Shown here in pieces: positions 3,100 to 63,523 of a stretch of 64,000 nt of DNA; position 1 is the first letter of the stretch; every line of letters begins with the position of its first letter. The notes beneath the pieces were generated by a model that had not been told where the DNA came from, made no database searches, and saw nothing but the letters and a program-made list of their open reading frames with translations. Source of the stretch: Candidatus Omnitrophota bacterium. Lineage in GTDB: Bacteria; Omnitrophota; Gorgyraeia; Gygaellales; Profunditerraquicolaceae. The position numbers were made by a program, and so were the translations under genes. The stretch lies in assembly GCA_023247825.1 (NCBI GenBank), contig JAHFFR010000001.1, forward strand, positions 23,009-87,008, read 5' to 3'.

Positions 3100-3414
3100 T
3101 TAATACGCTTTAACCGTCTCTCTTATTCCTTCCTCCATGGTAAAAGGCGGTTTCCAGCCCAATAAATTGTGGATTTTACTGCTATCAACAAGCAGAGTCC
3201 CTGTTAATTTTTCCACCTCTTCGCCCTTGCCTGCAATCTTACACAGCACCTTTAGAATGCCAGGATGTAAAGAAAATAGAAACGCCTTCTTCTTCATTGC
3301 AGAAGCGATCATCCTTATCAAATCTGGAGTAGAAATATCCTGCCCATCACTTACTAAGAAAGTCTCCCCTGCCGCTTTTGGGTGCTGGACGCAAGTTATA
3401 ATAGCATCAACCAA
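3100..3414 (-). pseudogene. Duplicated 3' fragment of the NAD-dependent epimerase gene at 4800..5738 (orphan C-terminal 104 codons)
   Basis: The nucleotide sequence 3112..3414 is identical to 4812..5114. The translation VDAIITCVQHPKAAGETFLV... matches the C-terminus of the 312-aa epimerase except for the last three residues. Confidence 0.7.
3112..3414. repeat. Left copy of a 303-bp perfect direct repeat
   Basis: Identical to 4812..5114 by direct comparison. Identity breaks at 3111/4811 and at 3415/5115. Confidence 0.85.
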
Positions 3415-4723
3415 CTTCGGCCAAAAGCCATTTCCAGAGAGGCACTATTTTCACCGTATGACCGTTCAACTTTTCTTCGCCTTCCGTTGCGTCCGTGACG
3501 ATAGTCGCATCTGTAATGTTCAAATCTTTCATGCCTTTATGAAGGCTGCGCAACTCTCGATTCCTTGTCTTTTCATCCTGCATATTCCAGCAGACTTGAA
3601 TTAAGCTCGTTACTTTCAAGCCTTCCTTGATAACGAAATCAACCTCGCTGTGATGGATATCTTTCCAATAAAACAGCTCAATATTCGGATTTAAATTTTG
3701 TTTCCGTTTGAGCGCCACAAAAACAACATTCTCGGCGAGTCTCCCATAATTCTCCGAAAATCTAAAACCAACAGCATTGCATAAACCGGTATCAATCGCG
3801 TAAATTTTGCGCGGACTTTTTTCCTGTTCTTTAACCTTGAATGAAAATCGTTTTAATGAAAAAACTAGATACGCCTGCTCAAGATATCCGGTATAGCTCT
3901 TGACGCTGGTTATCGACATATCAAGTGAACGTTCTATTGATTTAAATGTAGAAGGCGCGGAGATATTAGAAAGGTAATACTTCACAATGGTTCTTAAGTC
4001 CTGAGCTTTCTTTATCTTGAATCTTCGTAAAAGATCTTTAGTTATTACATCCTCAAAATAGCTTAATAAAATCTCTTTTTTCTGCTCTGACAGAACGACT
4101 TCGGGGAATGAACCATATTCAATGTATTTTCGTAAAGCTCCTTTTATTTCCGATTCCCTTCCGATTAACCCCAGCTTGCCGGTCAACGAGATATTATTAA
4201 AAGAAAGAAATTCCCCGAACGATAACGGAAAGACCTCCATATCAAGATGCCTGCCGGTAAGCAATGTTCCAAGTTCCCGGCTTAAGAGGAGCGCGTTTGA
4301 ACCAGATATAATTATTTTTGCCTTTGAAAGCTCATGCATCATCCTAACCCATTTCTCGAAGCCTTCTATTTCCTGTATTTCATCAATGAATAAGATCGGA
4401 GTGTTTTGGGCAGATATGTATTCGCGGTAAGTCTCAAAAATCTTGCTTAAAAGCGAAACTCCCGACTCAGTAAACCGCGGATCCTCAAAATTGACATGCA
4501 TTATATCCTTTGAATTATACCCACTATTGATCAGCCTCTTTATCATTTGACGTATGATAAATGATTTGCCTGCGCGCCTCGGGCCCATTATAGTAATAAC
4601 TTGGTTAGACGAAAAAAGGGATTCAAGTTTCGAAATATAGATAGGCCTTGAAACGCCTATTTTCTGGTCTCGATTCCAAAAATTCCAATCATCAAGTATC
4701 TGAATTATCTCATTTTTTGTCAT
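3407..4723 (-). CDS. AAA+ ATPase of the AAA_14/DUF4143 (COG1373-like) family, the only gene between the two repeat copies
   Basis: Walker A (IMGPRRAGKSF) and Walker B (ILFIDEIQEI) motifs. The C-terminal region is typical of DUF4143. The last 8 bp including the stop codon lie inside the left repeat copy. Confidence 0.8.
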   Translation of the reverse strand: MTKNEIIQILDDWNFWNRDQKIGVSRPIYISKLESLFSSNQVITIMGPRRAGKSFIIRQMIKRLINSGYNSKDIMHVNFEDPRFTESGVSLLSKIFETYREYISAQNTPILFIDEIQEIEGFEKWVRMMHELSKAKIIISGSNALLLSRELGTLLTGRHLDMEVFPLSFGEFLSFNNISLTGKLGLIGRESEIKGALRKYIEYGSFPEVVLSEQKKEILLSYFEDVITKDLLRRFKIKKAQDLRTIVKYYLSNISAPSTFKSIERSLDMSITSVKSYTGYLEQAYLVFSLKRFSFKVKEQEKSPRKIYAIDTGLCNAVGFRFSENYGRLAENVVFVALKRKQNLNPNIELFYWKDIHHSEVDFVIKEGLKVTSLIQVCWNMQDEKTRNRELRSLHKGMKDLNITDATIVTDATEGEEKLNGHTVKIVPLWKWLLAEVG

Positions 4724-4799
4724 TTATCACCTCACTATGTAACAAGATTTCTAAATCCTATTATTTACATAGTAAATATACACCAAAATTACCGTTTTG

Positions 4800-5738
4800 T
4801 CAATCATATACAACCGTCTCTCTTATTCCTTCCTCCATGGTAAAAGGCGGTTTCCAGCCCAATAAATTGTGGATTTTACTGCTATCAACAAGCAGAGTCC
4901 CTGTTAATTTTTCCACCTCTTCGCCCTTGCCTGCAATCTTACACAGCACCTTTAGAATGCCAGGATGTAAAGAAAATAGAAACGCCTTCTTCTTCATTGC
5001 AGAAGCGATCATCCTTATCAAATCTGGAGTAGAAATATCCTGCCCATCACTTACTAAGAAAGTCTCCCCTGCCGCTTTTGGGTGCTGGACGCAAGTTATA
5101 ATAGCATCAACCAAATTACCAAGATAAATAAAACTGCGCCGATTATTAATATCCTTGAACGGCAAAGGCAAGCCAGAACCAACAAGTTTAATCAAACTCT
5201 TAAAATTAGCCTTTACTCCCGGTCCATAAACCAAAGGCAGCCGTAAAATTACTGTCTGAAGGCCGGTTTCGGCAGCTATTCGAGACAATACCCGCTCTGC
5301 CTCCATCTTGCTGATACCATAAACATCCTGAGGTTCAGGAAGATCATCTTCGGTATACGACCAAGAAGCTCCTTCGCCATTTATTTTGACCGAACTGATA
5401 AAAATGAACCTTTTGACTCCTGCTTTTGCGGCCATTTGCGCCAATCGTTCGCTCCCCATAATATTAACTTTCCGGAAAGCATTAAGAGGATTAGACGCTG
5501 AATCATTCATAACATGGACTCGTGCCGCCAAATGAATAACCGTATCAACACCAACTAATGCCTCTTGCCAATCAGTTTGAGGGCCGATATCACCAATTTC
5601 AACTGTTTTGCAATTAATAGGCAATCTAATATCTATATTATGCCGCACCGCTGCGCGCAGATTAAAACCATAATCACTCAAGGTTTCACATAATGCCCTT
5701 CCAATAAAACCTGTCGCACCGGTAATTAATATCTTCAT
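4800..5738 (-). CDS. NAD-dependent epimerase/dehydratase (extended SDR), likely NDP-sugar 4-epimerase/reductase
   Basis: Starts MKILITGATGFIGRAL. Carries a YGISK (YxxxK) catalytic motif. 312 aa. Confidence 0.8.
   Translation of the reverse strand: MKILITGATGFIGRALCETLSDYGFNLRAAVRHNIDIRLPINCKTVEIGDIGPQTDWQEALVGVDTVIHLAARVHVMNDSASNPLNAFRKVNIMGSERLAQMAAKAGVKRFIFISSVKINGEGASWSYTEDDLPEPQDVYGISKMEAERVLSRIAAETGLQTVILRLPLVYGPGVKANFKSLIKLVGSGLPLPFKDINNRRSFIYLGNLVDAIITCVQHPKAAGETFLVSDGQDISTPDLIRMIASAMKKKAFLFSLHPGILKVLCKIAGKGEEVEKLTGTLLVDSSKIHNLLGWKPPFTMEEGIRETVVYD
4812..5114. repeat. Right copy of the 303-bp perfect direct repeat
   Basis: Identical to 3112..3414. Lies inside the 3' end of the epimerase CDS at 4800..5738. 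Confidence 0.85.
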
Positions 5739-5805
5739 AATCTGTATTTAACGTCCAGCGTTTTGACAATTAGGTTTTTCAGCGGATTGGTTGGCGGCTT
5801 GGCCG

Positions 5806-6987
5806 TCAGCGCAACCATGTATATATATCAGAGGCATTATTCGGTGGCTGTTTGATAACCTTATCCCAGAGTTCCCTATCCAATACCGCCCACATTTTTT
5901 TAAATTCTTCGTTTAACATATCCAATGTTTCCGGAATCACGGTAATCTGTTGTACTGGGCTCGAGAAAAGCGCCCGGGCAAAATTGCCATTTTGAATAAA
6001 GCCCATTGTAAGCAATGGTTCGGATAAAGAATTAAGGAGAAGAAATGGTTTGGAACCGAAAAGCGCCATGCTGCCGGGCCCGGAAGCCGCTCCCATATGT
6101 ATGGCCGCGCCATTGATCAGGGCCAGATCCTGTTCAACGCCCGCGCGAAAGTCTTTTGTCATGAGCACATTTGAGCAGCGCTTGAAACGTTCGTCCATTT
6201 CGGATTCCGCTCCGATGATGATGAATTTAACCGGATATTGCTCTTTGCATACGGTAAAGAATTCAAGCCAGACATCATAATTAGAATTACGGCCTGGGTT
6301 AACTTTATTCTTTCGCAATTGAACTGTTACCGGAAGAAAAGGAAAGACATGTTTGTGCATAAAATCAGAGGCCCAAGAAAGCATATTGGGCCTTGGATTC
6401 AAAGCGGGGAGCCGGTTATTTTTTTGGTAATACTCAGCAAGGAGTTCGTGATAAATACGATAGATCAGGTACTCCCGGGAAAAATACGTTCCTGCCGACG
6501 GCCAAACCAGATATCGGTCCATATTGTCCGCCACAAAACGTTCCAGATGGTCATGGCTATTAAACAGGAATAGAGAGCCAAGGCGCGAGTTCATCTGCGC
6601 TACGGGAAGAATCAAAGCCAGGTGAAAAAGGTAATTATCTTCGGTGATACCGGACAGGACAGGATCAGGAGCGGCGGGGCGAGCAGGGTTGTAGACCAAC
6701 GCAAAATCGACGGCCGCACAATTATTTTTCTCGAGCAAAACAAGGCCGGCTTCCTGAAAAGTAAGAATGTCGCCGACACTATAGGGCTGGCTTGTCAGGT
6801 CATAAATCATCAGGACACGCCGATCTTCTTTCCGGACGACACAAAAAATACTATGCGGTAAGGCAAAAAACCAGGCAAATATGCCTATAATTCTGTATAT
6901 GGGACTTCTAACCGCGCGAAATACGGCCGCACACGGAGGAGAAGTATTTCTTAATCTTTTAGCGATATTCCACAAACGCCGCCACAT
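5806..6987 (-). CDS. Hypothetical protein, possibly a GT9 (heptosyltransferase-like) glycosyltransferase
   Basis: Weak resemblance to GT9 motifs (VLMIYDLTSQPYSVGDILT; HMGAASGPGSMALFG compared with D(T/S)GPMHLAAA..LFG). No firm family call. Confidence 0.4.
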   Translation of the reverse strand: MWRRLWNIAKRLRNTSPPCAAVFRAVRSPIYRIIGIFAWFFALPHSIFCVVRKEDRRVLMIYDLTSQPYSVGDILTFQEAGLVLLEKNNCAAVDFALVYNPARPAAPDPVLSGITEDNYLFHLALILPVAQMNSRLGSLFLFNSHDHLERFVADNMDRYLVWPSAGTYFSREYLIYRIYHELLAEYYQKNNRLPALNPRPNMLSWASDFMHKHVFPFLPVTVQLRKNKVNPGRNSNYDVWLEFFTVCKEQYPVKFIIIGAESEMDERFKRCSNVLMTKDFRAGVEQDLALINGAAIHMGAASGPGSMALFGSKPFLLLNSLSEPLLTMGFIQNGNFARALFSSPVQQITVIPETLDMLNEEFKKMWAVLDRELWDKVIKQPPNNASDIYTWLR

Positions 6988-7048: not shown

Positions 7049-8419
7049 CTACCCTTTTAAATTACTGTGCCAGCTTATTCTGCAGTATTGCCAAGTTACA
7101 AATACCAGAGGAATTATTATAATGTTTACAATCAAATATCCCATGGCGACCCCGGCAGCTGAATAATATTTTCCCAGAATAATTGTTAACCCTCCGATAA
7201 GCGCTCCTGCCATAACCGATAAGAATACGAGTGGTTCTTTTTTATGCGCACGCAAATATCCTGACGCGGGAAGCGATACGCTTACAATAATCTGCGCCAA
7301 TAAAAAAATAGCTACCGTTAATGGTGGTAGAAACCTTACGGCAAATTTACTATGAAAATTATATAGCAAAAAAATACCAAACCAAATCGATAAACCTAAA
7401 ATTACAGAAACAATTAAAACAACCCTTGTCATCTTAAAGAATAGCTTATCCAGTGTTTCGTAATCTTTCTTAGCGATAAGCATTCCGAATCTAGGAATTT
7501 TTGGCGCAAGCCAGGCACTCGATATCCAAATAACAATCCCTACCAAATTCCATGTCATTCCCATTTGCCCTGCGACGACTGACCCGTGGAATTTGAATAA
7601 TACCGGCGTAAATAACGAAAAAACAAAATATCCACCAACCCAAGAGACAGCTATCCTCCATTGCATTGGGAAGATATCCTTATACCATTTAATCCGCGGC
7701 CCTTTCGCATTAAGAAAAAACAGGCTTCTGAAAAAATACCAATATTTGTATTTTATGAAGAATAGGCCGCACGCCAGAAACATTATACTTGAAACAGAAA
7801 GCGCAAAAAGCCCTGCCCCGGATAAGATTGCAATCCAAATAGATAAGTTTACCAGTAATCCTTGCCAAAACTTAAAAAAATATAATTCTGCAAGTTGATT
7901 GCACCCTTCCAGCAGCGACCATATCGGGGCCAGGCAAAGATTTATACCAGTTAAAAAACATAAGCTAAACCATGGAAATACCCAACTGATACCGGATTTT
8001 TGTGATTCTAAAAAGAATACATACCCGCCTATTCCTAAAAAAAGAATTAGGAAGGCCGCGCCGACTGCATACCATCTTAAAGACAACCGTGCTAAACTAC
8101 CCAGCCTTGACAGCGCTTCTTCACTGCCCGCTATAAAACCTTTTTCTGTAATACTAAGGCGCGACCATTCATGGCTTGCAAATTGAATGATTACAACTCC
8201 AAGGCCTAGCTCCACAAAAACCTGTAGCGCAAGAAGCGTGCTGAAGGTATAGTAATACCCCTGTAATTCAGGCGAAAATTTGATAATGATAAGTATAATC
8301 GTAATGGGGCCTGTGATGATCAACCATGCTTTCGATAAGATACTAAAAAATGCGGGCCGATCAACTTCAATCTTCCGCAAATTATTCTTAATAAAATTTC
8401 TCGCCTCGGATATTTTCAT
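7049..8419 (-). CDS. Polytopic membrane protein, Wzx-like (MOP/polysaccharide biosynthesis flippase family) candidate
   Basis: 456 aa with about 12 predicted TM helices and a Wzx-like N-terminal region (IIIKFSPELQGYYYTFSTLLALQVFVELGLG). Confidence 0.55.
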   Translation of the reverse strand: MKISEARNFIKNNLRKIEVDRPAFFSILSKAWLIITGPITIILIIIKFSPELQGYYYTFSTLLALQVFVELGLGVVIIQFASHEWSRLSITEKGFIAGSEEALSRLGSLARLSLRWYAVGAAFLILFLGIGGYVFFLESQKSGISWVFPWFSLCFLTGINLCLAPIWSLLEGCNQLAELYFFKFWQGLLVNLSIWIAILSGAGLFALSVSSIMFLACGLFFIKYKYWYFFRSLFFLNAKGPRIKWYKDIFPMQWRIAVSWVGGYFVFSLFTPVLFKFHGSVVAGQMGMTWNLVGIVIWISSAWLAPKIPRFGMLIAKKDYETLDKLFFKMTRVVLIVSVILGLSIWFGIFLLYNFHSKFAVRFLPPLTVAIFLLAQIIVSVSLPASGYLRAHKKEPLVFLSVMAGALIGGLTIILGKYYSAAGVAMGYLIVNIIIIPLVFVTWQYCRISWHSNLKG

Positions 8420-10172: not shown

Positions 10173-11093
10173 CTAAAATAATTCAGACTTTACCTTTTGT
10201 ACAATATTATCCACGGTAAACCCAAGAAGTTCACAAATATCTGCATAAGAGCCATAATCCCTGACAAAGATATCAGGTATAGCAATAAATGAATATTTTA
10301 TACCAGCCAGATCTTTAGTAATTCTGAGGACTTCATCGCCCATTCCTCCATACATACTATGCTCTTCTATAACAATAACTTTCTTGGTATTTTTAACACT
10401 TTCCAGTATCAATTTCTGATCAAAAGGTTTAATGGTGTGCATATAAATTATCTCTGCATCAAAACCAAACTTCTTCAATAACTCAGAGGCATCCAACGCA
10501 GTTTTTAACTGAGGGCCAGTGACTACAATAGTTAGATCGTTACCCTTCGTAACCTTTATCCCCTTTCCTGATATAAGCTGCTCTTTGCTAAAAATAAAAT
10601 CATGGGATAACCTAGGGATACGAAAATAGGATACCTTTCCATTGTTATACGTTTGTTTAAAAAGGGTAATAAGTTCTATTGGGGAAGCGGGAAAAAATAT
10701 CTGAGTATCGGGTAGCGGTTTTAACAAAGCGAAATCAACGTAACAATGATGAGTACATCCAAGAGTTGAATAATCAAAAGCGCTGCCGACAGTAATAATA
10801 TTAACTCCCAGCTCTTGATAACAAAAATCTAGCTTTATCTGCTCATACGACCTTTCTACAATAAACGGAGCGATGGTATGTACAACTGGATAAAAACCCA
10901 ACATCGATAAACCAGCTGCCATATTTACAATGGTTGGCTCGCAAATACCAATATTATAATATCTACCCTGGCATGCCTTAGCAAAATCCAGAAGCCTAAA
11001 ATGGCTTATGTCACCAACCATAACCACAAGGTTTTCATCCTTCTTACCTACCTCAAGGAGCGTATCAGCAAACTCCTCACGCATATCCTTCAT
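10173..11093 (-). CDS. Transketolase, C-terminal (pyrimidine-binding) subunit of a split transketolase
   Basis: Transketolase pyrimidine-binding/C-terminal domain pattern. Its start overlaps the stop of the N-terminal subunit gene by 4 bp. Confidence 0.85.
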   Translation of the reverse strand: MKDMREEFADTLLEVGKKDENLVVMVGDISHFRLLDFAKACQGRYYNIGICEPTIVNMAAGLSMLGFYPVVHTIAPFIVERSYEQIKLDFCYQELGVNIITVGSAFDYSTLGCTHHCYVDFALLKPLPDTQIFFPASPIELITLFKQTYNNGKVSYFRIPRLSHDFIFSKEQLISGKGIKVTKGNDLTIVVTGPQLKTALDASELLKKFGFDAEIIYMHTIKPFDQKLILESVKNTKKVIVIEEHSMYGGMGDEVLRITKDLAGIKYSFIAIPDIFVRDYGSYADICELLGFTVDNIVQKVKSELF

Positions 11094-44615: not shown

Positions 44616-45571
44616 TGAAAAACTCCCTTATGCAATTCATCCGTACTGCTTAACTTAGCATTTTTTACGTTCTTTATAGTAAACACAACTTCATTCAATA
44701 TCTCTTTTTCTATTTTTTTAATCTCACCGTTAACATACCCGGATTTCATAAGTCTGATCCGCTGAAGACTGACAGGGTCTCTTTTAAGCCACTTTTTGAA
44801 TTCATCTTTCTTCCTGTATCCTGCATCAAAATCATAATTAATCCCCACATGTTCGAGATAACGGTAATATTTAAAATTCATGAAATATGGCTCTGGCTTT
44901 TTGCGCAGCACATCTATGGCCTTAGAAGTAAGATTATAAATTTCCTCCGCATCAGTAGAATCAATTTCAAGAGTCTGGCAACGGAATTTCTTAACGATTT
45001 CCGTTATAGAATTATATCCACGGCGCTCTTTTATATGACTATGAACAGCAAGCTCGTTGTCTTCACACACAAAAATTACCGGCAGCTGCATTAAACTGGC
45101 GATGTTTAAACTCTCCCAAAAAACACCCTCATCCACAGCGCCATCTCCAAAAAACGCAACAACAATTTTTCTGTTTTTATTTATCTTGTTTGCCCACGCA
45201 CACCCTACTGCGACAGGAATATGTGCAGAAACTATCGCTGATGTCCCCATAAATCCCTTTTTAGGCAGACATAAATGCATTGAACCACCTTTTCCTTTTA
45301 AGGAAGACGTCTCTTTTGCGTACATTTCAGCAAAAAATTCGTTTACATCGCCTGTTTTGGCAAGAAAAATAGAATGAGTCCGATATGTAGTAAATATCTG
45401 ATCGCTTTCGGTCAAAGCATGACAAACCCCGGCTGCAATAGCTTCATTCCCCATAGACATATGCATAGGAGTCTTCATCTCATCCTCATGATAATATTTC
45501 TGTATCTGTTTCTCTGCGCATCGAATCAGATACATCTTTTTATACAATTCTATACTAAGTTTTTTATTCAT
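44612..45571 (-). CDS. ThDP-dependent E1 alpha subunit-like, second pair
   Basis: GKGGSMHL motif. 319 aa. Confidence 0.8.
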   Translation of the reverse strand: MNKKLSIELYKKMYLIRCAEKQIQKYYHEDEMKTPMHMSMGNEAIAAGVCHALTESDQIFTTYRTHSIFLAKTGDVNEFFAEMYAKETSSLKGKGGSMHLCLPKKGFMGTSAIVSAHIPVAVGCAWANKINKNRKIVVAFFGDGAVDEGVFWESLNIASLMQLPVIFVCEDNELAVHSHIKERRGYNSITEIVKKFRCQTLEIDSTDAEEIYNLTSKAIDVLRKKPEPYFMNFKYYRYLEHVGINYDFDAGYRKKDEFKKWLKRDPVSLQRIRLMKSGYVNGEIKKIEKEILNEVVFTIKNVKNAKLSSTDELHKGVFQ

Positions 45572-45578
45572 TTGTCCT

Positions 45579-46190
45579 CTATTTCTCTACGGTTAATGCT
45601 TTCCAAGGGGAACGCTTGAGTTCAAATCTCCAATAATTTAAAACATCCTCTAAAGTCTGCTCCAAAGGAATAACTGGTTCCCACCCTGTTTCATTACGAA
45701 ACTTATCTATACACGGTATCTGTAAGGTTACGTCAGACGGCCGGAAGAGCTCAGGATCGACTTTTATCTCCGGCTTGACTTCGGAAAAAGAAATCAAAAT
45801 ATCCAGGGCCTCGCCGATAGTCATCGTCCGATTACCGCCGATATTATAGACTTCGCCCGGTTTACATTTACTGATCATAATCCAATACGCTTTCACTGCA
45901 TCAGGCACATCACAAAAGGTCCTCACGGATTTAAGATTTCCAACCCTGACAATCGGTTTACTTAGTTTCAATTCCGCGGCAGCAATCTGCTTTGCGAAAA
46001 ACATACTGCAAAAACATCTCCTCTCCTAGGTCCGGTATGAGTAAACATTCTAGTACGAATAGTCTTAATCCCATGCGACAACCAATATTGATATGTTACC
46101 ATATCTTCTCCAACCTTACTTACCGCATAAGGCGATACCGGCCTTAAGGGACAGTTTTCTCTAATGGGACTATTGCGAAATACCTCTTTT
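45579..46190 (-). pseudogene. 5'-truncated, frameshifted paralogue of the Gmd/Rmd-like gene at 56501..57514
   Basis: My own translation of 46190..46010 gives EVFRNSPIRENCPLRPVSPYAVSK...TIRTRMFTHTGPRRGDVF. A frameshift follows near 46005, then the ORF 45579..46004. Homology stops exactly at the inverted-repeat element at 46192. Confidence 0.6.
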
Positions 46191-46191
46191 T

Positions 46192-46282
46192 GTCATTCTG
46201 AGCACATTCGTTTCGCTCAGTGTAAACTCCGCGAAGAATCTATTTATCGTCGAGATTCTTCGGCCTTCGGCCTCAGAATGAC
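46192..46282. mobile_element. 91-bp MITE-like structured element with 11-bp terminal inverted repeats (GTCATTCTGAG ... CTCAGAATGAC) and nested internal palindromes
   Basis: Inner pairs are CGAAGAATCT/AGATTCTTCG and GGCCTTCGGCC. It sits exactly at the truncation point of the Gmd/Rmd pseudogene. There is no flanking T-run, so it is not a typical terminator. Confidence 0.45.
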
Positions 46283-46311
46283 GTAAAATTGGGAGTTTCG
46301 CAACAGCCCCC

Positions 46312-47646
46312 TCATGACACTTTCCACAATATCTTGTCTATTATCAATTTCAAACATGGCTTTAAACTTTCTTTTAAACGCTCTCCAAGTCTTTTAGGAA
46401 GAATCGGCCTTGCGGCTTTAAAACAAACATATGAGCATTTAAATAATAGCCAACGCCAATCCGTTATTCGCTGATACCAGAGATAGAAACAATACGATAA
46501 TTTATGAGAAAGAAACCAATCAGTGATTTTTAGCGATAACGCCTGAAAAAAAGGCAAGCTTCTCAGCCGCGGCCATGGGAACTCAATCGTTTTCCTTCCC
46601 CAGTTAGCTAAGATCGATTGATCATCTGCTTGATCCAACTGATAAGGATAATCTCTTTTAAAGAGCTTGCCAGGTGTTGCGGATGAAATTAATTCTTCTG
46701 TTTTATCCAAAACAATCTTCCAGAAACGGCGGGCCGAATAATACTGTTTTGTTTTGACATAACCATTATGAGCTATCCTGACCCTTTCGGCCTCGTTTTT
46801 CAGGTAATACCTGGCTTTTTTCAATAGGTCCGCATTTGAAAAATAAGGAACATAGTCAACATTAGGGATGAATAATTTGGCAGTTTCCGGAGCTGCTTCC
46901 TCCAGAAGCATAGCCCCGCAATTCGTAACTTCAAATGCCCGGGCATTAGTGACCGGAATATAACCGGGGCAGGAAAAACTCAAAACAATTTTAGAGCGCT
47001 GAAAAATTTCTGCAAATTCAGCAATAGGCAGGTGCTCTTCGTGTTCGCCTCCGGCACGATAAACTTTTAAACCATGTTTTTCAAGATACTTTATCCTCCG
47101 CAATCTAGCCAGTTTTGTCGAGCCGGGATAGCTAAGGTCAATATCTCTTTCTCTGCCAGGATCATAAAAATATTCGGGATTCTTCGGAACCCAAAAATAA
47201 GAAAATTTCTGCGGATCTTTCATACGCCGAAAAACTACGCTGGTAGCGGTAAACATATTGAAATCGATAAATGGCTGGAATACGTCCGATATTTTTACCA
47301 GTATTTCACATTCGAAATCCCCCCAAATAGCGAAGAACGGAATCGAAAAACGCTTTTTTATTGTTTCTAATGTCTTAAGGGACGGAGTATTAACAGCATC
47401 AGGAAAATTATAGATCACCAGACAGATTAGTTGAGGCCGGAATTCGGCTATTTTACTCAAAAGGGCCTCATCGCCTTTAGTCCCGGTTGTCCGGTAATAT
47501 TCGTCAAAATGGAAGACTTCCACTTCGGCCAAATTGACGGCTTGGAGAGACTGCCATAAATTGCCCTCCCAGGCCGATAGGCCCCAATCAATATTGCCGG
47601 AACACCACTTGTCCGCAACGAATAGTATCCTGGGTTTATTTATCAT
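46312..47646 (-). CDS. CgeB-like (Glyco_trans_1_2 / DUF3880-type) GT-B glycosyltransferase, tandem paralogue A
   Basis: C-terminal region AEFAEIFQRSKIVLSFS...NARAFEVTNCGAMLLEE. 444 aa. Confidence 0.55.
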   Translation of the reverse strand: MINKPRILFVADKWCSGNIDWGLSAWEGNLWQSLQAVNLAEVEVFHFDEYYRTTGTKGDEALLSKIAEFRPQLICLVIYNFPDAVNTPSLKTLETIKKRFSIPFFAIWGDFECEILVKISDVFQPFIDFNMFTATSVVFRRMKDPQKFSYFWVPKNPEYFYDPGRERDIDLSYPGSTKLARLRRIKYLEKHGLKVYRAGGEHEEHLPIAEFAEIFQRSKIVLSFSCPGYIPVTNARAFEVTNCGAMLLEEAAPETAKLFIPNVDYVPYFSNADLLKKARYYLKNEAERVRIAHNGYVKTKQYYSARRFWKIVLDKTEELISSATPGKLFKRDYPYQLDQADDQSILANWGRKTIEFPWPRLRSLPFFQALSLKITDWFLSHKLSYCFYLWYQRITDWRWLLFKCSYVCFKAARPILPKRLGERLKESLKPCLKLIIDKILWKVS

Positions 47647-56500: not shown

Positions 56501-57514
56501 TTAGCGTGTCAGGAAATGTCTCCCTGGTTTTACCCTGTCTCTCCAGTAATCAAGCAAATCTTTCATTGTTTTTTCAAAAGGTATCTCGGGTTTCCAACCT
56601 GTATGAGCTTTGAATTTTTTTGTATCAGGGACCTGCAGGTCGGCATCAAGGGGGCGCAGCCTGCTTTTTTCTGTTTCAACTTTTATATTCTTAGCAGTGG
56701 AGATGGAAAGCAAGTAGTTAAGCATTTCCCTTACCGTACAAGTGTAAGTGCCGCCTATATTGTAATATTCGCCCGCTATCGGATTGATAGTTACCAGCAT
56801 AAAATATGCTCTTACCGCATCCCGGACATCTGCCCATGTACGCAGAGAATCTAAATTGCCGGTTTTTACTATAGGCGGTATCATCTTATATTCTATCATA
56901 GCGATCTGTTTCGCAAAGGTGGATTCGGCAAAGACATCGCCGCGGCGGGGCCCGGTATGAGTAAACATCCGGGTAACAATAACTTTTTGTCCATACGCTT
57001 CGGCATGGAACCTGCCTGACAGATCAGTGCCTGTTTTTGAAATTGCGTAGGGCGAGGCTGGATGAAAAGAGCAGTTTTCGTTTATCGGCAATTTTTCTTT
57101 AGCGACTCTTCCGAAAATCTCAGACGAAGAACATACATGGATAATAGGATCAATGTCGTGGCACCTTCTCAATGCCTCAAGCAATCTCTCGGTTCCAAGA
57201 ATATTCGTGTCCAGGGTATGAATGGGGGAACTAAAACTTATAGTCGGATAACTCTGCGCAGCGAGGTGAAAGACGTAATCCGGACGGCTTTCCTCAACAA
57301 CATTCTGCAACGAAATATAGTCGCATAGATCGCCATATACGAAATAAACGCGATCTTTCCTGTTAGCTCGATCAAGAAGATGTTGAACATTATCTAAAGG
57401 GCTGCGCCATCGGCACATGCCGTAAATATCCCACCCGGTATTTCCCAATAAGAAATCGGCCAAATGGGAACCGACCATACCGCTAATTCCGGTAATAAGG
57501 GCTCGTTTTTTCAT
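56501..57514 (-). CDS. Gmd-family NDP-sugar 4,6-dehydratase or 4-reductase (Gmd/Rmd-like)
   Basis: ALITGISGMVGSHL, YAISK and FTHTGPRRG motifs. 337 aa. Confidence 0.8.
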   Translation of the reverse strand: MKKRALITGISGMVGSHLADFLLGNTGWDIYGMCRWRSPLDNVQHLLDRANRKDRVYFVYGDLCDYISLQNVVEESRPDYVFHLAAQSYPTISFSSPIHTLDTNILGTERLLEALRRCHDIDPIIHVCSSSEIFGRVAKEKLPINENCSFHPASPYAISKTGTDLSGRFHAEAYGQKVIVTRMFTHTGPRRGDVFAESTFAKQIAMIEYKMIPPIVKTGNLDSLRTWADVRDAVRAYFMLVTINPIAGEYYNIGGTYTCTVREMLNYLLSISTAKNIKVETEKSRLRPLDADLQVPDTKKFKAHTGWKPEIPFEKTMKDLLDYWRDRVKPGRHFLTR

Positions 57515-58263
57515 TATTTATCACCCCTAGATTTTTCAGTCTCGACAGATCTTTTAACCTTATTAAAAAAAGATTCTGCTTCCTTATACGAGCTTGATGT
57601 GCCAATATCGATAAATTTCGCATCTTGCGGAAATGCAAATAATCCGCTACCAATCATCTCCGGAAAAAAATTATTTTCGAGTGAGATATTTTCCTTTTCC
57701 CTTATTAACGCCACCGATCCGCGGTTTATGCAATATATTCCGGCGTTGATCCACCCGCTTTTGATATCCGCGCTTTTTTCATCAAAGGAAGTAACCATGT
57801 AATTTGAGTCAAAATTGACGCAGCCGTATCTGCTTACATCCGGTACGCGAACCAGGGCCAGTGTGCATGACGATTTTCTTAAAAGATGCCATTCTAATAA
57901 ATTCTGCGGATTAATCCCGCAGTAGGAGTCTCCGTTGTAAACCATAACCACATCGGATTTTATCATATCAAACGCATTTCTTATTGCGCCTGCCGTACCT
58001 AAAGGCTCTTGCTCTTTTGAATAACGCAGTGAAAGCGCCTTATACCTACTACCCAATAATTTTTCGATTTGTTCACCCATGAACCCTGTGCATAAAGTTA
58101 CATCCTTACCGCCCGCATTTGAAATTTGTTCGAGAATAAACGTAATGAACGGGCGCCCGGTAACTTCGGCAAGAACTTTTTGCCGGTCAGAAACTATTAA
58201 CCGCAACCTCTTGCCAAGCCCCCCACATAGAATCAATATGCTGATTTGAGACAGGTTATCCAT
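57514..58263 (-). CDS. Sugar-1-phosphate nucleotidyltransferase, HddC (heptose-1-P guanylyltransferase)-like
   Basis: ILCGGLGKRLR (G-x-G-x-R-L) motif. 249 aa. Confidence 0.75.
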   Translation of the reverse strand: MDNLSQISILILCGGLGKRLRLIVSDRQKVLAEVTGRPFITFILEQISNAGGKDVTLCTGFMGEQIEKLLGSRYKALSLRYSKEQEPLGTAGAIRNAFDMIKSDVVMVYNGDSYCGINPQNLLEWHLLRKSSCTLALVRVPDVSRYGCVNFDSNYMVTSFDEKSADIKSGWINAGIYCINRGSVALIREKENISLENNFFPEMIGSGLFAFPQDAKFIDIGTSSSYKEAESFFNKVKRSVETEKSRGDK

Positions 58264-58408
58264 CTAAACTCCGCTTTGCACCAACACAAGTAACATTACT
58301 TTGCTAGAAAATATTGTTAACTTTTTACCCTAACTCCTGCTATTCTACCGCTAAACCAATTACGCCTGCGCCTATAATCAAAATGTCAATTTTTCCATTA
58401 GTTTAGAT

Positions 58409-58439
58409 CGGGGACAGTCCCAAAAAACGGGACAGTCCC
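58409..58439. repeat. REP-like element copy A: GGGGACAGTCCC-AAAAAAC-GGGACAGTCCCC (two 11-13-bp hairpins)
   Basis: Each unit GGGAC-A-GTCCC is a self-complementary hairpin. Copy B is near-identical, down to the 3' flank TCTATT. Confidence 0.8.
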
Positions 58440-58441
58440 CT

Positions 58442-58660
58442 CTATTCGCCACCAATAGACGGCACCTGGAGTAAAACTGAAATTCTGTAGATTCTCGGAG
58501 AGAATAAGATACACCCGAACCCTATGGCACAAATTAATAGGAATACTCCAAAAAAAGTATTTTTGCGTTTAGCAAATAATTTGAAACACTGATACAGATC
58601 TATTTCCGCCTCCTCAAAATTGAACTGAGTTATTTGATCCATGCTACTGGCACCTCTCAA
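58442..58660 (-). pseudogene. Orphan N-terminal fragment (~70 aa) of a Wzz/GumC-type chain-length-determinant protein
   Basis: EIDLYQCFKLFAKRKNTFFGVFLLICAIGFGCILFSPRIYRISVLLQV has the typical Wzz N-terminal TM pattern. The ORF ends at REP copy A and has no downstream continuation. Confidence 0.45.
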
Positions 58661-58915
58661 TTTGCTGCCTACTTATTACTATCATTGATCTTGCCTAAAG
58701 AGATAGCCAGCTTCGTAGAAAGCTCCCGCTGCGTAACAGCAGGCTGAGACTCTATCTCTTTGATAATAATGAGGTTCTCTTCCTTTAAGGAGGATTGTTC
58801 AGGCATTGAACAGATATTTTAACTCGTTAGATAAGAAAGTCAAGTTCTTTAAGGGGATTTTTTTGGATTTAAATAGAAAAGGTGAGGCTTCTAGTTATTT
58901 AGGACGAGATCCCTG

Positions 58916-58946
58916 CACTGAGCGAAGCGAATGTGCTCAGGATGAC
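58916..58946. repeat. Partial inverted copy (29/31 nt identical) of the left arm of the 46192 MITE-like element
   Basis: cactgagcgaagcgaatgtgctcaggatgac matches the reverse complement of 46192..46222 (cactgagcgaaacgaatgtgctcagaatgac). Confidence 0.6.
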
Positions 58947-58982
58947 GATGAAATTCAGGATTCCCCCCCCAGAATAAGTATA

Positions 58983-59459
58983 TTACTCAAGTAACCGCGC
59001 AAAAGTCTTTGATTCAAGGAAATTAACTTCACCTGGCTCTTCAAGAAACCGGCTGACATCATTTCTAACTTTTGCCCAATCTAATCCCTCGGCAACTTTT
59101 CTAATTTCTGATTTCCAGTTTTGCGAATCAATCTTAACTGGCTCTTGCGATGTCTGAGCCATAGCGTTATTGAGCATAATATAATTCGGCTCTAGTTCTT
59201 TAAATTTTGTCAAATACCACAATAAATCATACCAATCCCTTCCCTTAGTATACTTGCGGCACAGAAGTGCATGCACTTTACCTGCAAGTAAAGAAGCTAA
59301 ATCATAATGAAGGACATAGAACATAGATGTTGAATTATACACATCGCTAACCTCCAAACCCCCCTGAGGCGGCTTGGAGTCAATCTCCACTTTGATAAAA
59401 ATCTTTTGTGTTTTTAACGGGCTTAAACCTGTTTCAAAAAGGATGTCGGAGAATGTCAA
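58983..59459 (-). pseudogene. N-terminally truncated AbiEii/AbiGii-family (DUF1814) nucleotidyltransferase toxin, C-terminal ~55% only
   Basis: VHALLCRKYTKGRDWYDLLWYL matches the family C-terminal signature. The N-terminal NTase motif is absent. REP copy B lies immediately upstream. Confidence 0.55.
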
Positions 59460-59474
59460 GGAAAACTTGATGTC

Positions 59475-59505
59475 GGGGACAGTCCCAAAAGGCGGGACAG
59501 TCCCC
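59475..59505. repeat. REP-like element copy B: GGGGACAGTCCC-AAAAGGC-GGGACAGTCCCC
   Basis: Lies between the ORF6N stop and the start of the AbiEii fragment. Confidence 0.8.
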
Positions 59506-59506
59506 T

Positions 59507-59890
59507 CTATTTCCCAGCTACAAGCAATTTTTTAATCGCCTCAAATATAACCTGAATGTCCGTTTCGTGTAATTGATATTTTCGCTCTAATTCTTCAAGT
59601 TTCTCTGCCAGCTCTTTATGTGTTAATAACAACTCACGTAATTTAACGAATGCCCGCATGATGGTAATGTTTACCCAAATGGCCTGCTTAGATTTAAGTA
59701 CACTAGAAAGCATTGCTACGCCTTGTTCTGTAAAGACATACGGCAAGTGCCTTCTTCCTCCCCAACTTGATATTCCTTTTTGGAATATCAAGTTTTTGCA
59801 CTCTTTTTTAGTTAACTGAAACATAAAATCTTCCGGGAAACGATCAATATTCCGTAATTTCTTAAAAAGGAATGGTAATTCCGGCTTCAA
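59507..59890 (-). CDS. ORF6N-domain protein, N-terminally truncated
   Basis: [21 protein letters not shown]...[27 protein letters not shown]...MRAFVKLRE is the canonical ORF6N core. The usual ~35 N-terminal residues are missing. The start overlaps the upstream gene. Confidence 0.6.
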
Positions 59891-60605
59891 TCCCCTGTTG
59901 GCCTTTACGGGATTTTAGCCTTATAAATGCTTCGGCGTCAAGATGTTCCAGGAATTTATGCGTCATGGTAAGGCTGATGCCTAAAGGATGGCCAAGCTCA
60001 TTCCTAAGCGCGAAAATAACTTTATTTCGGCCAAAGGTTACCTCTGCCCCAAATTCCATTGCCCTGATATTCCCCTGGCCATAATCTATCTGAAAATTTA
60101 GCCCTAAATTACGGCCAAACTTCCATTCTCCATATAGAATAAGTAGTTGGCTGGATGCGGCCAAGCGGCTTTGACGCATGCCTACGCCGATACGGTAGCG
60201 GATCTGGCCTTTTTTAGGATAAAGCGTGGGCGATTCAAGTTGGACCTTGAATTCAAAGCGGGAGGTTGAGCTGGCTTCAAAGATATAGACTAGCCGATCC
60301 TCTGAAGGCAATTGCCAATACCCTCTGAAGGTTAATGTGTCACGCCCATCTTCGGATGTATATTCAATCTGCTGATTTTTGTTTAACTTCCAGCTTCCCT
60401 TAAAGGTATAAGTTTGAGGCGGGCCTTTGCGCAAAGCAACCTCAAAGACAAGCTCATTGTATTCATTGGCGCGCCAGGTGCCTTTAAGTTTAAGTATGCG
60501 CAGGCGCTGGCGGTTGGTTTTGGATTCAGTCTGGATGGTTTCGATTACGAGAGAGCCGGATTCAGCGGCGATAAAACGCTTGCGGATATTATCGGTTGGC
60601 TTCAT
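59862..60605 (-). CDS. Hypothetical beta-rich protein, no recognisable family
   Basis: 247 aa. No signal peptide or TM helix. Locally higher GC content. Translationally coupled (17-bp overlap) to the epimerase gene upstream. Confidence 0.35.
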
Positions 60606-61638
60606 AGATCTGCTTAATCATTTCTTCTATGCCGTATTTATAATTCCAGGATGGGTAGTGCGATTTGAATTTGGAGACGTCGCTGATCCACCAGATATGG
60701 TCGCCGATGCGGTTAGAATCAATATAATCATATTCAAATTCCTCGCCCGTCAGCCCCTCGCACAGCTCAATCGCCTCAAGGATGGAAACATTGGCAAACC
60801 TGCCTCCGCCAATATTGTAAACTTCGCCGCAGCGGGGTGCCTGGAAATAATGGTAAAAGGCATTGACCAGGTCGAAAGAATGGATGTTATCCCTGACCTG
60901 TTTGCCTTTATACCCGTAAATCTTATATTTGTATTTTCTTACCGCGCATTTTACCAGGTATGATAAAAATCCGTGAAGCTCTGCCCCGGAATGCGCAGGG
61001 CCGGTCAGGCATCCGCCGCGGAAAATTCCCGTGCGCAGATGGAAATACTTTCCATATTCCTGCACCATGATATCCGCCGCAACTTTTGAGGCGCCGAAAA
61101 CCGAATGCAGGCAATTATCAATGCTCATTGACTCATCAATTCCTTTGAAATACTTGTGGCCATCTGAAATCTCAAAACGTTTTTCTTTTTCAATCAAAGG
61201 AAGCCGGTTAGGAGTATCGCCATAGACTTTGTTGGTAGAGGTAAAAATAAAGACCGCGCGGGGAGAGAATTTACGCAGGGCCTCAAGCATAACAAGGGTT
61301 CCGTCGGCATTGACCCCGAAATCAACCGCAGGATCCTTAGCCGCCCAATCATGGGACGGCTGGGCCGCGGCGTGCACAATTAAGGCGATATCTTTGTTGT
61401 ATTTTCTAAATATTGAATTTATTTTACGCTGATTGCGGATATCTACGGAATAATGGCGGTAGTTTTTATGCAGTTTCTGAAGGCGTTTTTGATTCCAAAG
61501 GATTGAGCCGTCTGCGCCAAAGAAGCTTTTGCGCATATTGTTATCAATGCCGACGATATCAAAGCCCTTTTCGGCAAAGAAACTCACGGTCTCCGAGCCA
61601 ATTAACCCGCAGGAACCTGTGACTAAAACAATGGACAT
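60589..61638 (-). CDS. NAD-dependent epimerase, CDP-paratose/tyvelose 2-epimerase-like
   Basis: [31 protein letters not shown] and NIGGG motifs. 349 aa. A strong SD (AAGGAAAAC) precedes it. Confidence 0.7.
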
Positions 61639-61651
61639 ATGTTTTCCTTTA

Positions 61652-61697
61652 AATTAGGGACAGCGGCTATTTATTTAAATAGTCGCTGTCCCTAATT
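61652..61697. repeat. Intercistronic 46-bp inverted repeat AATTAGGGACAGCG-G-CTATTTATTTAAATAG-T-CGCTGTCCCTAATT
   Basis: A near-perfect hairpin overlapping the last two codons and stop of rmlB and ending ~15 bp before the SD of the next gene. It shares the AATT-GGGACAG core with the REP copies. The T-tract on the transcribed strand is weak. Confidence 0.55.
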
Positions 61698-62729
61698 AAT
61701 ATAAAGCTTATTAATATCTTTTAACTTACTCTTAAGCCAGGCTTGATGCTTGAGCGACCAAGCTACGGTAAGCTTAAGGCCCTGCGCAAGTGAAACGCCC
61801 GGCTTCCAGCCAAGCTCTCTGGTAATTTTTCCTGAATCAAGGCTGTATCTTATATCATGGCCTAAACGGTCTTTAACAAACTCAAATCTATTCCGGCTGG
61901 CTCCAAGAGTTTTTAGTAATAATTTTACCGTATCAATATTCTTACTCTCGCAGGCGCTCCCTAAATTATACGCCTCTCCTATTTTGCCCTTGTTCATAAT
62001 TGCCAGGATGCCGGCCACGCAATCGTCAACATAAAGCCATTCGCGGACATTTAGCCCTTTGCCATAAACCGGGATTTTTCCGCCGCCTAATATTCTAAGG
62101 ATAGCAAGCGGGATCAATTTCTCAGGATACTGCCAGGGGCCGTAATTATTTGAAGGGCGGATAATTATCGCGGGAAATTTGTAAGTCCTGATATATGACT
62201 GCACTAAAAGATCGGCTGCTGCTTTAGAAGCCGCGTAAGGGCTGTTAGGCTTAATCGGAGAATTCTCGTTGAACTTGCCATTGGCAATTTCTCCGTAGAC
62301 TTCGTCTGTAGAAATAAAAATAAATTTCTTTGCATTATATTTACGGCCGGCATCGAGGAGAATTTGTGTTCCTTTAATGTTGGTTTCGATAAACGGAGTG
62401 GCGTCGTTAATGCTGCGGTCGACGTGGCTCTCAGCGGCGAAATGCACCACAATACCCGGATTTTCTTTTTTGAAAATTGAGTCAATCTTCTGCTTATCGC
62501 AAATATCAACTTGATAGAAATTGGGGACAGTCCCCTTCGGGGACAGTCCCCAATTAAGCCTCTTAAGGTCGCCGGCGTAGGTGAGGCTGTCTACTACGAT
62601 AACCTCGAAAGATTGAGATTGCTTCCCCGCCACAGAACTTTGGCGGGTCGCAATGACACGCCTCACAAATGCGCTGCCGATAAAACCCGCGCCGCCGGTA
62701 ACTAGGATTTTAGGTATTCTTTTACGCAT
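61692..62729 (-). CDS. rmlB: dTDP-glucose 4,6-dehydratase with a REP-like palindrome embedded in-frame
   Basis: ILVTGGAGFIGSAFV, SLTYAGDLKRL, PYAASK and ISTDEVYG motifs. 345 aa. Confidence 0.85.
   Translation of the reverse strand: MRKRIPKILVTGGAGFIGSAFVRRVIATRQSSVAGKQSQSFEVIVVDSLTYAGDLKRLNWGLSPKGTVPNFYQVDICDKQKIDSIFKKENPGIVVHFAAESHVDRSINDATPFIETNIKGTQILLDAGRKYNAKKFIFISTDEVYGEIANGKFNENSPIKPNSPYAASKAAADLLVQSYIRTYKFPAIIIRPSNNYGPWQYPEKLIPLAILRILGGGKIPVYGKGLNVREWLYVDDCVAGILAIMNKGKIGEAYNLGSACESKNIDTVKLLLKTLGASRNRFEFVKDRLGHDIRYSLDSGKITRELGWKPGVSLAQGLKLTVAWSLKHQAWLKSKLKDINKLYIN
62523..62551. repeat. REP-like element copy C: GGGGACAGTCCCC-TTC-GGGGACAGTCCCC, inside the rmlB coding sequence
   Basis: Lies within AATT...AATT flanks. 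On the coding strand it reads AAT TGG GGA CTG TCC CCG AAG GGG ACT GTC CCC AAT = NWGLSPKGTVPN. It replaces the variable loop between the LTYAGxLxxL and FxxxDICD segments of RmlB. Confidence 0.85.
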
Positions 62730-63523
62730 TCTTCAAGTACAGAATTAATATTCCTGACTTTGAATCCAGTTTTTTCAAGCTTACTTGTAGACAAAATCAG
62801 ATTAGTCCTGGCTAATCCGAGCTTACGGAAATCAATAACAGTATACTTAAATCCCGGGACATATTTTTGATAAACCTTCATAAGTTCGGGATAACGCAAG
62901 CCGCCCTTATTCACCACGTTATAAATCCCGCGGGCATCAATCTTTATCAAATGCTTAACTGCTTTAATAAAATCAGGAACATAGGTTACGGAATTGGGGA
63001 TATCAATAACCTTCCTGTATTTTATAAGCTTATCTAATACGTTCTTAGGATGCTTGGCATTATGTAAAGGGATCCTGATTCTTGTGATCAAAATATTATA
63101 CTCCTTTGACAGTGCCTCGAGGGCTGTTTCAGAATAAATCTTGCTGCGGCTGTAAAATAATTTAAAGAAATAATCCCGGCTGTCTTCTTTTATCGGCTTA
63201 TCTTTTTTATAATCAAAGTTAAAAATACACCCGCTGCTTATGTGCGCCAGTTTTATATTATTGCGTAAAGCCGCCTCTGCCAGCATCACCGGGATAAAGC
63301 TATTGGCCAGTAATGCCGCATCCTTTTCCAGCTCGCAGTCATCGACATTGCGCCTGCCGGTAATACCGATGCAATTAATGATTATTTTAGGATGGTATTT
63401 TTTAATCAGATTATCGGCATCGCGAAAACAATTTATCCTTGAGCCGTCAACCCTACAGTCAAATTCTTTCTGCAACCTTTCGCCGATAAAACCTTTCCCT
63501 AAAATTAAAATATTCTTATTCAT
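62702..63523 (-). CDS. rmlD: dTDP-4-dehydrorhamnose reductase
   Basis: ILILGKGFIGERL and the RmlD fold pattern. 273 aa. Confidence 0.8.
   Translation of the reverse strand: MNKNILILGKGFIGERLQKEFDCRVDGSRINCFRDADNLIKKYHPKIIINCIGITGRRNVDDCELEKDAALLANSFIPVMLAEAALRNNIKLAHISSGCIFNFDYKKDKPIKEDSRDYFFKLFYSRSKIYSETALEALSKEYNILITRIRIPLHNAKHPKNVLDKLIKYRKVIDIPNSVTYVPDFIKAVKHLIKIDARGIYNVVNKGGLRYPELMKVYQKYVPGFKYTVIDFRKLGLARTNLILSTSKLEKTGFKVRNINSVLEECVKEYLKS

Follow-up and report, generated by a model that had tools for sequence, protein, structure and literature searches.

What stands at the joint between the conserved nucleotide-sugar genes and the variable surface-glycan genes of an Omnitrophota genome, and which part of it still looks like a working gene? 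The question is raised by positions 58264-60605 of a 64,000-nucleotide stretch of contig JAHFFR010000001.1 from a Candidatus Omnitrophota bacterium (the whole stretch analysed is called the window here), where truncated open reading frames (ORFs) and palindromic repeats adjoin an intact 247-aa ORF, named UNK here (Table 1). An earlier note on this DNA had read the ensemble as the scar left by a defence or mobile island that entered between two glycan modules and subsequently decayed. Comparison with related loci points, with high probability, to a gene-decay scar at 58264-59861, situated at a recombination hotspot between a conserved nucleotide-sugar block and a variable surface-glycan cluster, with UNK outside the scar.

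Gene remnants downstream of UNK

The window was compared with 52 related Omnitrophota loci (relatives, numbered with the prefix L), comprising eight contigs obtained via exact-protein look-ups and 44 loci from species-representative genomes; a reference gene set was placed on all 52 by tblastn. Every gene from 54 to 64 kb of the window is on the minus strand, and upstream and downstream are used here in the direction of transcription. The relatives share a recurrent gene order, TyrRS-SWEET-RmlA-RmlD-RmlB-Epim349-(Epim345)-(Peptidase_C1)-UNK-(MarR_EPS)-(Wzz)-variable glycan genes, and UNK is present, co-oriented and at the same relative position in 52 of 52. A clean example of the ancestral arrangement is provided by L044, in which an epimerase of 355 aa, UNK (249 aa), MarR_EPS (110 aa) and a Wzz+GNVR protein (335 aa; 4981-5988) are followed by PseB/DegT-type genes. 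The ancestral order is UNK, MarR_EPS, Wzz and then variable glycan genes, and UNK itself is a conserved backbone gene.

Both genes expected next to UNK are present in the window as fragments. The MarR_EPS remnant matched HTH_24 (expectation value, E, 1e-4) and TIGR04176 (E 3e-7; 30.3 bits versus a cut-off of 88; profile positions 4-36 of 105), and was 54% identical to the start of the intact 110-aa regulator of L001; the intact L044 orthologue reached 95.7 bits against the same TIGR04176 cut-off. The Wzz remnant matched Pfam Wzz (PF02706) with E 6e-5 and 23.7 bits, under the cut-off of 25.5, shared 52-56% identity with the N-terminal 60-70 residues of Wzz+GNVR proteins in relatives, and includes the first transmembrane segment. 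The remainder of Wzz (periplasmic domain, GNVR/second transmembrane segment) was not found in the window. MarR_EPS lies directly after UNK in at least six loci, and MarR_EPS and/or Wzz follow UNK natively in L044, L013, L014, L019, L042 and L043. Because their intact counterparts follow UNK in relatives, the two pieces are decayed native backbone genes and not parts of an island.

The other two remnants are of defence-type families. The AbiEii toxin remnant (158 codons) matched its Pfam profile with E 2e-13 and 51.2 bits versus a cut-off of 22.5, only over profile positions 96-229 of 238, and the PADLOC AbiEii model with E 6e-38. It was 71-75% identical to the C-terminal 158 residues of the intact L004-L006 proteins and ends at the same residue. 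In L004, L005 and L006, which hold some of the UNK copies nearest to that of the window, UNK is followed after ~75 bp by intact genes for AbiEi (213 aa; PADLOC E 9e-50) and AbiEii (267-268 aa). Relatives thus carry at the orthologous site the full two-gene module of AbiE, a type IV toxin-antitoxin/abortive infection system (PF08843), whereas the window has AbiEii residues 110-267 only and no AbiEi gene; the AbiEi of L004, used as a tblastn query, had no match anywhere in the window. Residues 1-109, the N-terminal half, are lacking, and a repetitive extragenic palindrome (REP) and the ORF6N remnant lie upstream of the break. The nucleotidyltransferase core of the AbiEii/DUF1814 family is located in this N-terminal half. 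The AbiEii piece is a pseudogene remnant, not a system.

The ORF6N remnant, contained in an ORF at 59507-59890, matched Pfam PF10543 (E 3e-19) over profile positions 34-86 of 86 and covers the domain's distal two thirds plus the coiled region that follows. It matched PADLOC PDC-S05 with E 6e-40, as compared to 6e-61 for an intact relative, and was 84-85% identical to the intact L002 protein. The piece therefore resembles ORF6N proteins, PDC-S05 and the phage anti-repressor-like PHROG 4792, but lacks the first 45 codons, native start included, and the last 14. Directly after UNK, L028 has an intact 170-aa ORF6N; in L026 a truncated one starts 27 nt after UNK. One representative of PDC-S05 reduced plating of T5 and T7 ~1000-fold in E. 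coli (preprint 10.1101/2024.09.26.614923); the tested protein is described with a RhuM domain and may be of another subfamily than the ORF6N of the window. Because intact versions directly follow UNK in relatives, the AbiEii and ORF6N pieces are decayed defence or selfish cassettes. The synteny comparison that the earlier note had proposed, a search for an intact AbiEi/AbiEii or other defence system at this site, was positive for AbiE in the three relatives named above and for ORF6N in L028.

Small selfish or defence genes are dispersed on both sides of UNK, at varying positions, in most of the 52 loci; among them are AbiEi/AbiEii pairs of two types, one to three copies of ORF6N, ATPases of the AAA_14/DUF4143 kind, Zeta toxin and Fic. 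This distribution bears on the idea of a single defence or mobile island that brought the 247-aa gene along as cargo, entered between two glycan modules and decayed afterwards. Such an island would account for two remnants of defence type, for intact versions at the same site in relatives and for the pieces of REP and MITE (miniature inverted-repeat transposable element). However, UNK is syntenic in all 52 loci whichever cassettes are present, Wzz and MarR_EPS are its native neighbours, the cassettes occur singly at differing positions on both sides of UNK and not as one block, the fragments do not exceed the window mean in GC content, and neither an integrase nor island boundary repeats were seen. 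A single island is consequently considered quite improbable. Of the earlier description, AbiEii and ORF6N as dead cassettes are retained, and the one inserted island that also held Wzz and UNK is not.

The breakpoints of the remnants can be placed closely. In the alignment with L028, the 5' break of ORF6N consists of the UNK stop codon, six bases, and then ORF6N codon ~46. The last 14 ORF6N codons have been exchanged for a REP and its flank, and the AbiEii remnant begins right after this REP. The MarR_EPS remnant ends after "ISLGKIN", with ~70 codons gone, and the start of Wzz lies within ~20 nt; Wzz is cut after ~66 homologous residues by REP copy 1. The stop codons of the truncated Wzz and ORF6N ORFs both come from REP flanks (…CTATT…, giving TAG on the minus strand). 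The REP unit measures 44 nt (TCGGGGACAGTCCC-N6-GGGACAGTCCCCTCTATT...), copy 2 being composed of GGGGACAGTCCC-N6-GGGACAGTCCCC and a conserved flank, and copies 1 and 2 are 91% identical. The 11-nt REP core GGGACAGTCCC had 12 matches in the window versus 0.38 expected; three paired copies are present, with RNA hairpins of -23 to -28 kcal/mol.

A history that would produce these joints is as follows. An ORF6N gene and an AbiEi/AbiEii pair would once have stood downstream of UNK in this genome. Deletions would have removed the start and the tail of ORF6N, the whole of AbiEi and the first 109 AbiEii codons, and would also have taken the last 70 MarR_EPS codons and Wzz beyond ~codon 66, with the 44-nt REP at two of the breakpoints either causing the breaks or later filling them. 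The Wzz break is also the joint to a different, ABC-transporter-type (Wzm/Wzt) cluster, for which Wzz would be dispensable; this fits replacement of the variable cluster by recombination.

Two points weigh against the scar as reconstructed here. The REPs could have inserted after the breaks had formed. Moreover, the reading frames of the AbiEii and ORF6N pieces remain open over 158 and 111 homologous codons, respectively, with neither stop codons nor frameshifts; the events would therefore be recent, or else the pieces would still be expressed. The absence of internal stops and frameshifts suggests that the losses were probably recent. The alternative is that the truncated ORFs are functional mini-proteins, for example an AbiEii C-terminal domain or an ORF6N core, expressed from the epimerase-UNK transcript and kept by selection. 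It gains from the open frames and from the ORF6N ORF (127 codons), whose TTG start at 59890 overlaps the 3' end of UNK by 29 nt, an arrangement in which coupling could allow reading. Against this, profile positions 1-33 of 86 and the native start are missing from ORF6N, AbiEii is without its nucleotidyltransferase core and its AbiEi partner, and the TTG start codons have no homology support. In pairwise alignment, AbiEii was also only 72-81% identical to intact copies that are 78-92% identical among themselves, a divergence compatible with, although not proof of, relaxed constraint. Working mini-proteins are thus regarded as improbable; from the alignments, none of the four remnants seems to keep what its family needs to work.

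That the fragments might be noise of ORF calling in an ordinary intergenic region, a possibility that the earlier note had itself raised as a refutation, has in its favor the shortness of the ORFs, the TTG starts and the Wzz match below the Pfam gathering score. But the pieces are 52-85% identical to genes that are full length in relatives, with E of 1e-17 to 1e-81, and the probability of this explanation is negligible. Several elements listed in the earlier note were recovered as described: an orphan Wzz N terminus that ends at a REP (which supplies the TAG stop), the C-terminal half of AbiEii, a second REP and an ORF6N protein without its N terminus, a poly-C run and a partial MITE arm. In contrast, the 320-bp stretch it gave as gene-free (58661-58982) holds the MarR_EPS remnant.

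The UNK family

UNK had no match in Pfam, NCBIfam, PADLOC or PHROGs, and no description of the family was found in the literature. A large protein collection contained 288 homologues, the best 120 of which were 68-81% identical and 243-271 aa long; the organism names among these 120 were all Candidatus Omnitrophota, except one labelled only "bacterium". None of the homologues listed carried a precomputed Pfam domain. An exhaustive search of 1.84 billion cluster representatives (50% identity) yielded 375 relatives at E<=1e-3, and in a profile search of a 5.8-billion-protein set the best 120 of 311 included neither a Pfam domain nor a non-Omnitrophota name. Comparison of a 134-sequence UNK alignment with PDB sequences gave chance-level matches only (best, ZnuD at E 0.28). 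UNK appears on these searches to be an undescribed family found so far only in Omnitrophota. The earlier note had proposed a 247-aa beta-rich protein of no known family as its one functional candidate, and this part stands: the protein looks functional and is undescribed.

Conservation of UNK is comparable to that of the genes around it. Across more than 40 species it is 62-81% identical, similar to RmlB, and among the 52 loci it is 62-80% identical to the window copy in all but one (L049, 58%); identities to the window copies across loci were 61-80% for RmlB, 64-84% for RmlD and 72-89% for the epimerase, the best-conserved gene of the block. The 17 nt by which the epimerase gene runs into the start of UNK in the window recur as an overlap in 12 other loci (L004-L006, L013, L018, L020, L027, L028, L033, L035, L038 and L046). 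UNK would be co-transcribed and probably translationally coupled with the epimerase. Coupling of these two genes had been proposed before with the epimerase as the downstream partner; the overlap fits the proposal, but the direction is the reverse, the epimerase lying upstream in transcription.

The family has two length classes, ~250 aa in the clade of the window and ~335 aa in other Omnitrophota lineages (e.g., P0122, P0123 and P0126). Relatives below ~46% identity are mostly 325-340 aa long and carry an extra N-terminal segment of ~90 residues built of the same hairpin motif; wherever named, the long forms are from Omnitrophota. Their gene contexts are ManC-Ugd-SDR-UNK-RmlA-RmlD in L053 (SDR, short-chain dehydrogenase/reductase), TyrRS-Ugd-SDR-UNK (4-nt overlap)-RmlA-RmlD-RmlB in L054, and radical-SAM-UNK-GT2 in L055. 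A papain-family Peptidase_C1 gene (260 aa) often adjoins UNK, on either side (L007 7214-7996, L013, L018, L034, L041 and others), and is also found near UNK in the distant long-form locus L053 (9457-10248); it is absent from the whole window. Second copies of UNK, AbiEi, ORF6N, Peptidase_C1 or RAYT (REP-associated tyrosine transposase) were not found in the window.

UNK is predicted to be an all-beta protein of ~20 beta-strands (AlphaFold2 model; mean predicted local distance difference test 86.8, predicted template-modelling score 0.81), is basic (isoelectric point 9.9), and its sequence consists of serial h-x-G-x-W-x-h-(N/D)-x-x-N-x-L-x-(F/Y) hairpins. Invariant or almost invariant positions in the 134-sequence alignment are confined to G, W, F, Y, L and N50. 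Because only structural residues are conserved across the family, UNK is unlikely to be an enzyme. Foldseek searches with the model returned no match in PDB or BFVD (best in BFVD, E 0.0057 with a template-modelling [TM] score of 0.13). The weak hits, with E no lower than 0.007 and TM no higher than 0.29, were to lipocalin-like, OspA and Rhs chains and are resemblances only. Two known groups come closest, and with both UNK has in common the repetition of h-x-G-x-W-x-h...N-x-L-x-F/Y hairpins. Lipocalin-like G-x-W domains (Lipocalin_4 PF13648, DUF5640) gave sub-threshold matches in three distant members of the family; for Lipocalin_4 these homologues reached 15.8-19.1 bits versus a cut-off of 22.4, with Pfam E of 0.0025-0.13, and the window protein gave none. 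The other group is that of elongated beta-hairpin-repeat proteins (OspA-like single-layer sheets; MORN or YD-type repeats). Mean-field covariation (effective number of sequences, 241) was too noisy for topology; a few ladders and a contact of F247 with P130/V121 stand out.

The neighborhood and the pattern of residue conservation allow the tentative suggestion that UNK serves surface-glycan or nucleotide-sugar metabolism as a soluble accessory protein with a binding or scaffolding role and not an enzymatic one. One consideration counts against this assignment: the UNK C terminus (...AGITIPF) resembles, on reading of the sequence, the signal of outer-membrane beta-barrels, which would imply another location. 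UNK might accordingly be a beta-barrel that is exported or placed in the outer membrane, or a structural protein of the cell surface with a part in, for example, glycan export or anchoring. This would suit the surface-glycan locus, the ~20 strands, and a C terminus (...EAGITIPF) that is hydrophobic at -1, -3, -5, -7 and -9 and ends in Phe, like the beta-signal; in the noisy covariation F247 pairs with P130 and V121, such that the last strand may close onto a central strand. However, neither short nor long forms show a signal peptide or transmembrane segment on reading of their sequences, the N-termini of both are conserved, and the ORF is not extendable upstream. The high isoelectric point also argues against a barrel, and no outer-membrane barrel was among the Foldseek matches in PDB (best E 0.018, TM <0.2). 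The barrel is considered unlikely, and the soluble accessory, itself a tentative assignment, is preferred.

Recombination at UNK and palindromes within genes

The 3' end of UNK recurs as a relic beside inserted DNA. In L004, a ~100-nt relic of it, stop codon included (10249-10374), lies just after the AbiEi/AbiEii insert, and in L031 a ~300-nt relic (7514-7813) follows an insert of ~1.7 kb and precedes MarR_EPS; on reading of the alignment, the L031 relic is ~80-85% identical to the resident UNK. A degraded second UNK copy at L002 13811-14529 (= L021 12808-13526) lies after a DltA/carrier-protein/MBOAT/GDSL cluster. No UNK relic was found in the window. Because UNK relics flank inserts, variable DNA has evidently been joined repeatedly within or at the end of UNK, and the UNK 3' end would behave as a conserved flank for homologous recombination. 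In enterobacterial rfb/cps loci, conserved flanks serve as recombination anchors, and truncated genes and mobile pieces mark past replacements of the cluster. The window is reminiscent of such O-antigen/capsule junctions in that the conserved rml-epimerase-UNK block meets a variable glycan cluster, with truncated MarR_EPS, Wzz and repeats exactly at the joint, and in the UNK relics of L004 and L031. It differs in its phylum and its anchor genes, and in that the hotspot has also been colonised by toxin-antitoxin and defence cassettes.

REP hairpins are found inside coding genes as well as at the breakpoints. Copy 3 encodes ...GLSPKGTVPN... in a variable loop of RmlB, and ...GLSPKGTVP... is likewise encoded by the REP in rmlB of several relatives; the same loop is short in L004 and L007 and contains other REP-derived peptides in L001 and L002. 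Among UNK homologues, 32 of 118 short-form sequences have insertions in the loop that follows the conserved ETIQT; they fall into at least three types (GLSPKGTVP, GDTLRSRVSP and SLRGAEGDEAIS). An identical DNA hairpin, CAGGGACTGTCCCCGAAGGGGACTGTCCCTG, is in frame in UNK of L015, L019, L029 and L049 and is absent from the window and L004; in-frame REPs are positioned at ~7087-7115 in L015, L019 and L029, at ~3110-3140 in L049 and at 3545-3670 in L001. Rickettsia palindromic elements (RPEs) likewise sit in frame inside protein-coding genes, and the in-frame copies in rmlB and in UNK homologues resemble them in this respect.

A RAYT-like Y1 (HUH) transposase gene is located between TyrRS and SWEET/RmlA in seven relatives (L001, 773-1459; L011, L012, L014, L016, L026 and L029), is 75-93% identical between loci, and scored 58.8 bits with Pfam Y1_Tnp. 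The corresponding position lies just beyond the window end, and no RAYT gene was found within the 64 kb. As in REP/RAYT systems, a short multi-copy palindromic hairpin is accompanied by a RAYT-like Y1 transposase in the same block of these relatives, but the window lacks the gene, and the relatives' match to the NCBIfam REP-associated tyrosine transposase (65 bits) is below the cut-off of 80. The RAYT-like transposase would be the likely mobiliser of the REPs.

Two further palindromic features were observed. A near-perfect 22+22-nt palindrome at 61652-61697 (RNA fold -28 kcal/mol, z -8.4) lies in the 53 nt that separate the end of rmlB from the start of the epimerase gene; its sequence includes GGGACAG, and it could represent a further REP variant or a hairpin for intercistronic processing or attenuation. 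The window also has a complete MITE-like element at ~46190-46285, bounded by terminal inverted repeats GTCATTCTGAG...CTCAGAATGAC, in the intergenic gap 45571-46312.

Surroundings of the junction and significance

The features of the junction are collected in Table 1. Past the NTP-transferase gene, the window continues with a GDP-mannose-dehydratase-like SDR, the Wzm/Wzt ABC exporter, a split transketolase, SDRs and methyltransferases. The label of heptose cluster given earlier to this side could not be confirmed; the HddC-like match of the neighboring NTP-transferase reached 145.7 bits versus a cut-off of 300. The GC content is 0.392 in the interval, 0.37-0.39 in the two defence-type remnants, 0.462 in UNK and 0.458 in the epimerase, against a window mean of 0.404. 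The local rise in GC reported before is confined to UNK and the epimerase, and a foreign origin by GC was rejected, as the fragments are not above the window mean. An Rfam scan of 57400-61800 gave no match, and promoter and terminator scans gave no signal above chance.

Table 1. Features at and around the junction, in the order of transcription (window coordinates).
Feature	Position	Strand	Remarks
rmlA, partial	from 63520	-	first in transcription order
rmlD	62702-63523	-	after rmlA
rmlB	61692-62729	-	after rmlD
REP copy 3	62524-62550	.	in frame inside rmlB; fold -28.2 kcal/mol, z -5.8
NAD-dependent sugar epimerase/dehydratase, 349 aa	60589-61638	-	Pfam Epimerase E 5e-34
UNK, intact 247-aa ORF	59862-60605	-	overlaps epimerase gene by 17 nt
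Probable scar interval, ~1.6 kb	58264-59861	.	between UNK and NTP-transferase gene
ORF6N / PADLOC PDC-S05 remnant, aa 46-156 of 170	59522-59854	-	Pfam and PADLOC
REP hairpin copy 2	59473-59516	.	ORF6N/AbiEii junction; fold -22.7 kcal/mol, z -2.4
AbiEii toxin remnant, aa 110-267 of 268	58983-59459	-	Pfam PF08843 and PADLOC
C8 run	58963-58970	.	after MITE arm
MITE-like single 31-nt arm	58916-58946	.	94% complementary to 46192-46222
MarR-family EPS regulator remnant, first 40 of ~110 residues	58669-58806	-	HTH_24, TIGR04176; remnant placed at 58684-58806
Wzz (polysaccharide co-polymerase) remnant, about first 66-70 residues	58442-58660	-	Pfam Wzz; remnant placed at 58445-58660
REP hairpin copy 1	58408-58451	.	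Wzz truncation point, junction with downstream glycan cluster; fold -24.8 kcal/mol, z -3.2
HddC-like or mannose-1-P-guanylyltransferase-like NTP-transferase	57514-58263	-	profile searches

Elsewhere, positions 3095-3394 and 4795-5094 of the window form a 300-nt direct repeat (97% identical, 1.7 kb apart) that brackets an AAA_14/DUF4143-like match (3494-4603), the same kind of ATPase as occurs in the UNK hotspot of relatives. The rmlB of L005 and L006 (4824-6830) encodes 668 aa and includes an insertion of ~320 aa flagged Intein_splicing, which sits between residues ~106 and ~93-332 of the normal protein and looks like an intein in dTDP-glucose 4,6-dehydratase.

The scar is an ordinary kind of feature, and UNK is the only part of the junction with real discovery potential. 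For annotation, the four pseudogene remnants should not be called genes, and none of them marks a working defence system here. The in-frame REP insertions constitute a natural map of insertion-tolerant loops, and may be a second case of palindromic elements spreading within coding genes. The phylum Omnitrophota is uncultivated, and a host-dependent or predatory way of life has been proposed for it. Taken jointly, the observations may possibly describe a new family confined to this phylum, with a hairpin-repeat fold without a solved counterpart, acting as a non-enzymatic component of glycan or nucleotide-sugar metabolism, whose gene is the anchor of a hotspot and has undergone RPE-like colonisation by REPs in a second phylum; as a whole, this reading is held only tentatively. 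With a family always situated in nucleotide-sugar/surface-glycan loci, confident models and no known relative, UNK is worth studying structurally and biochemically.

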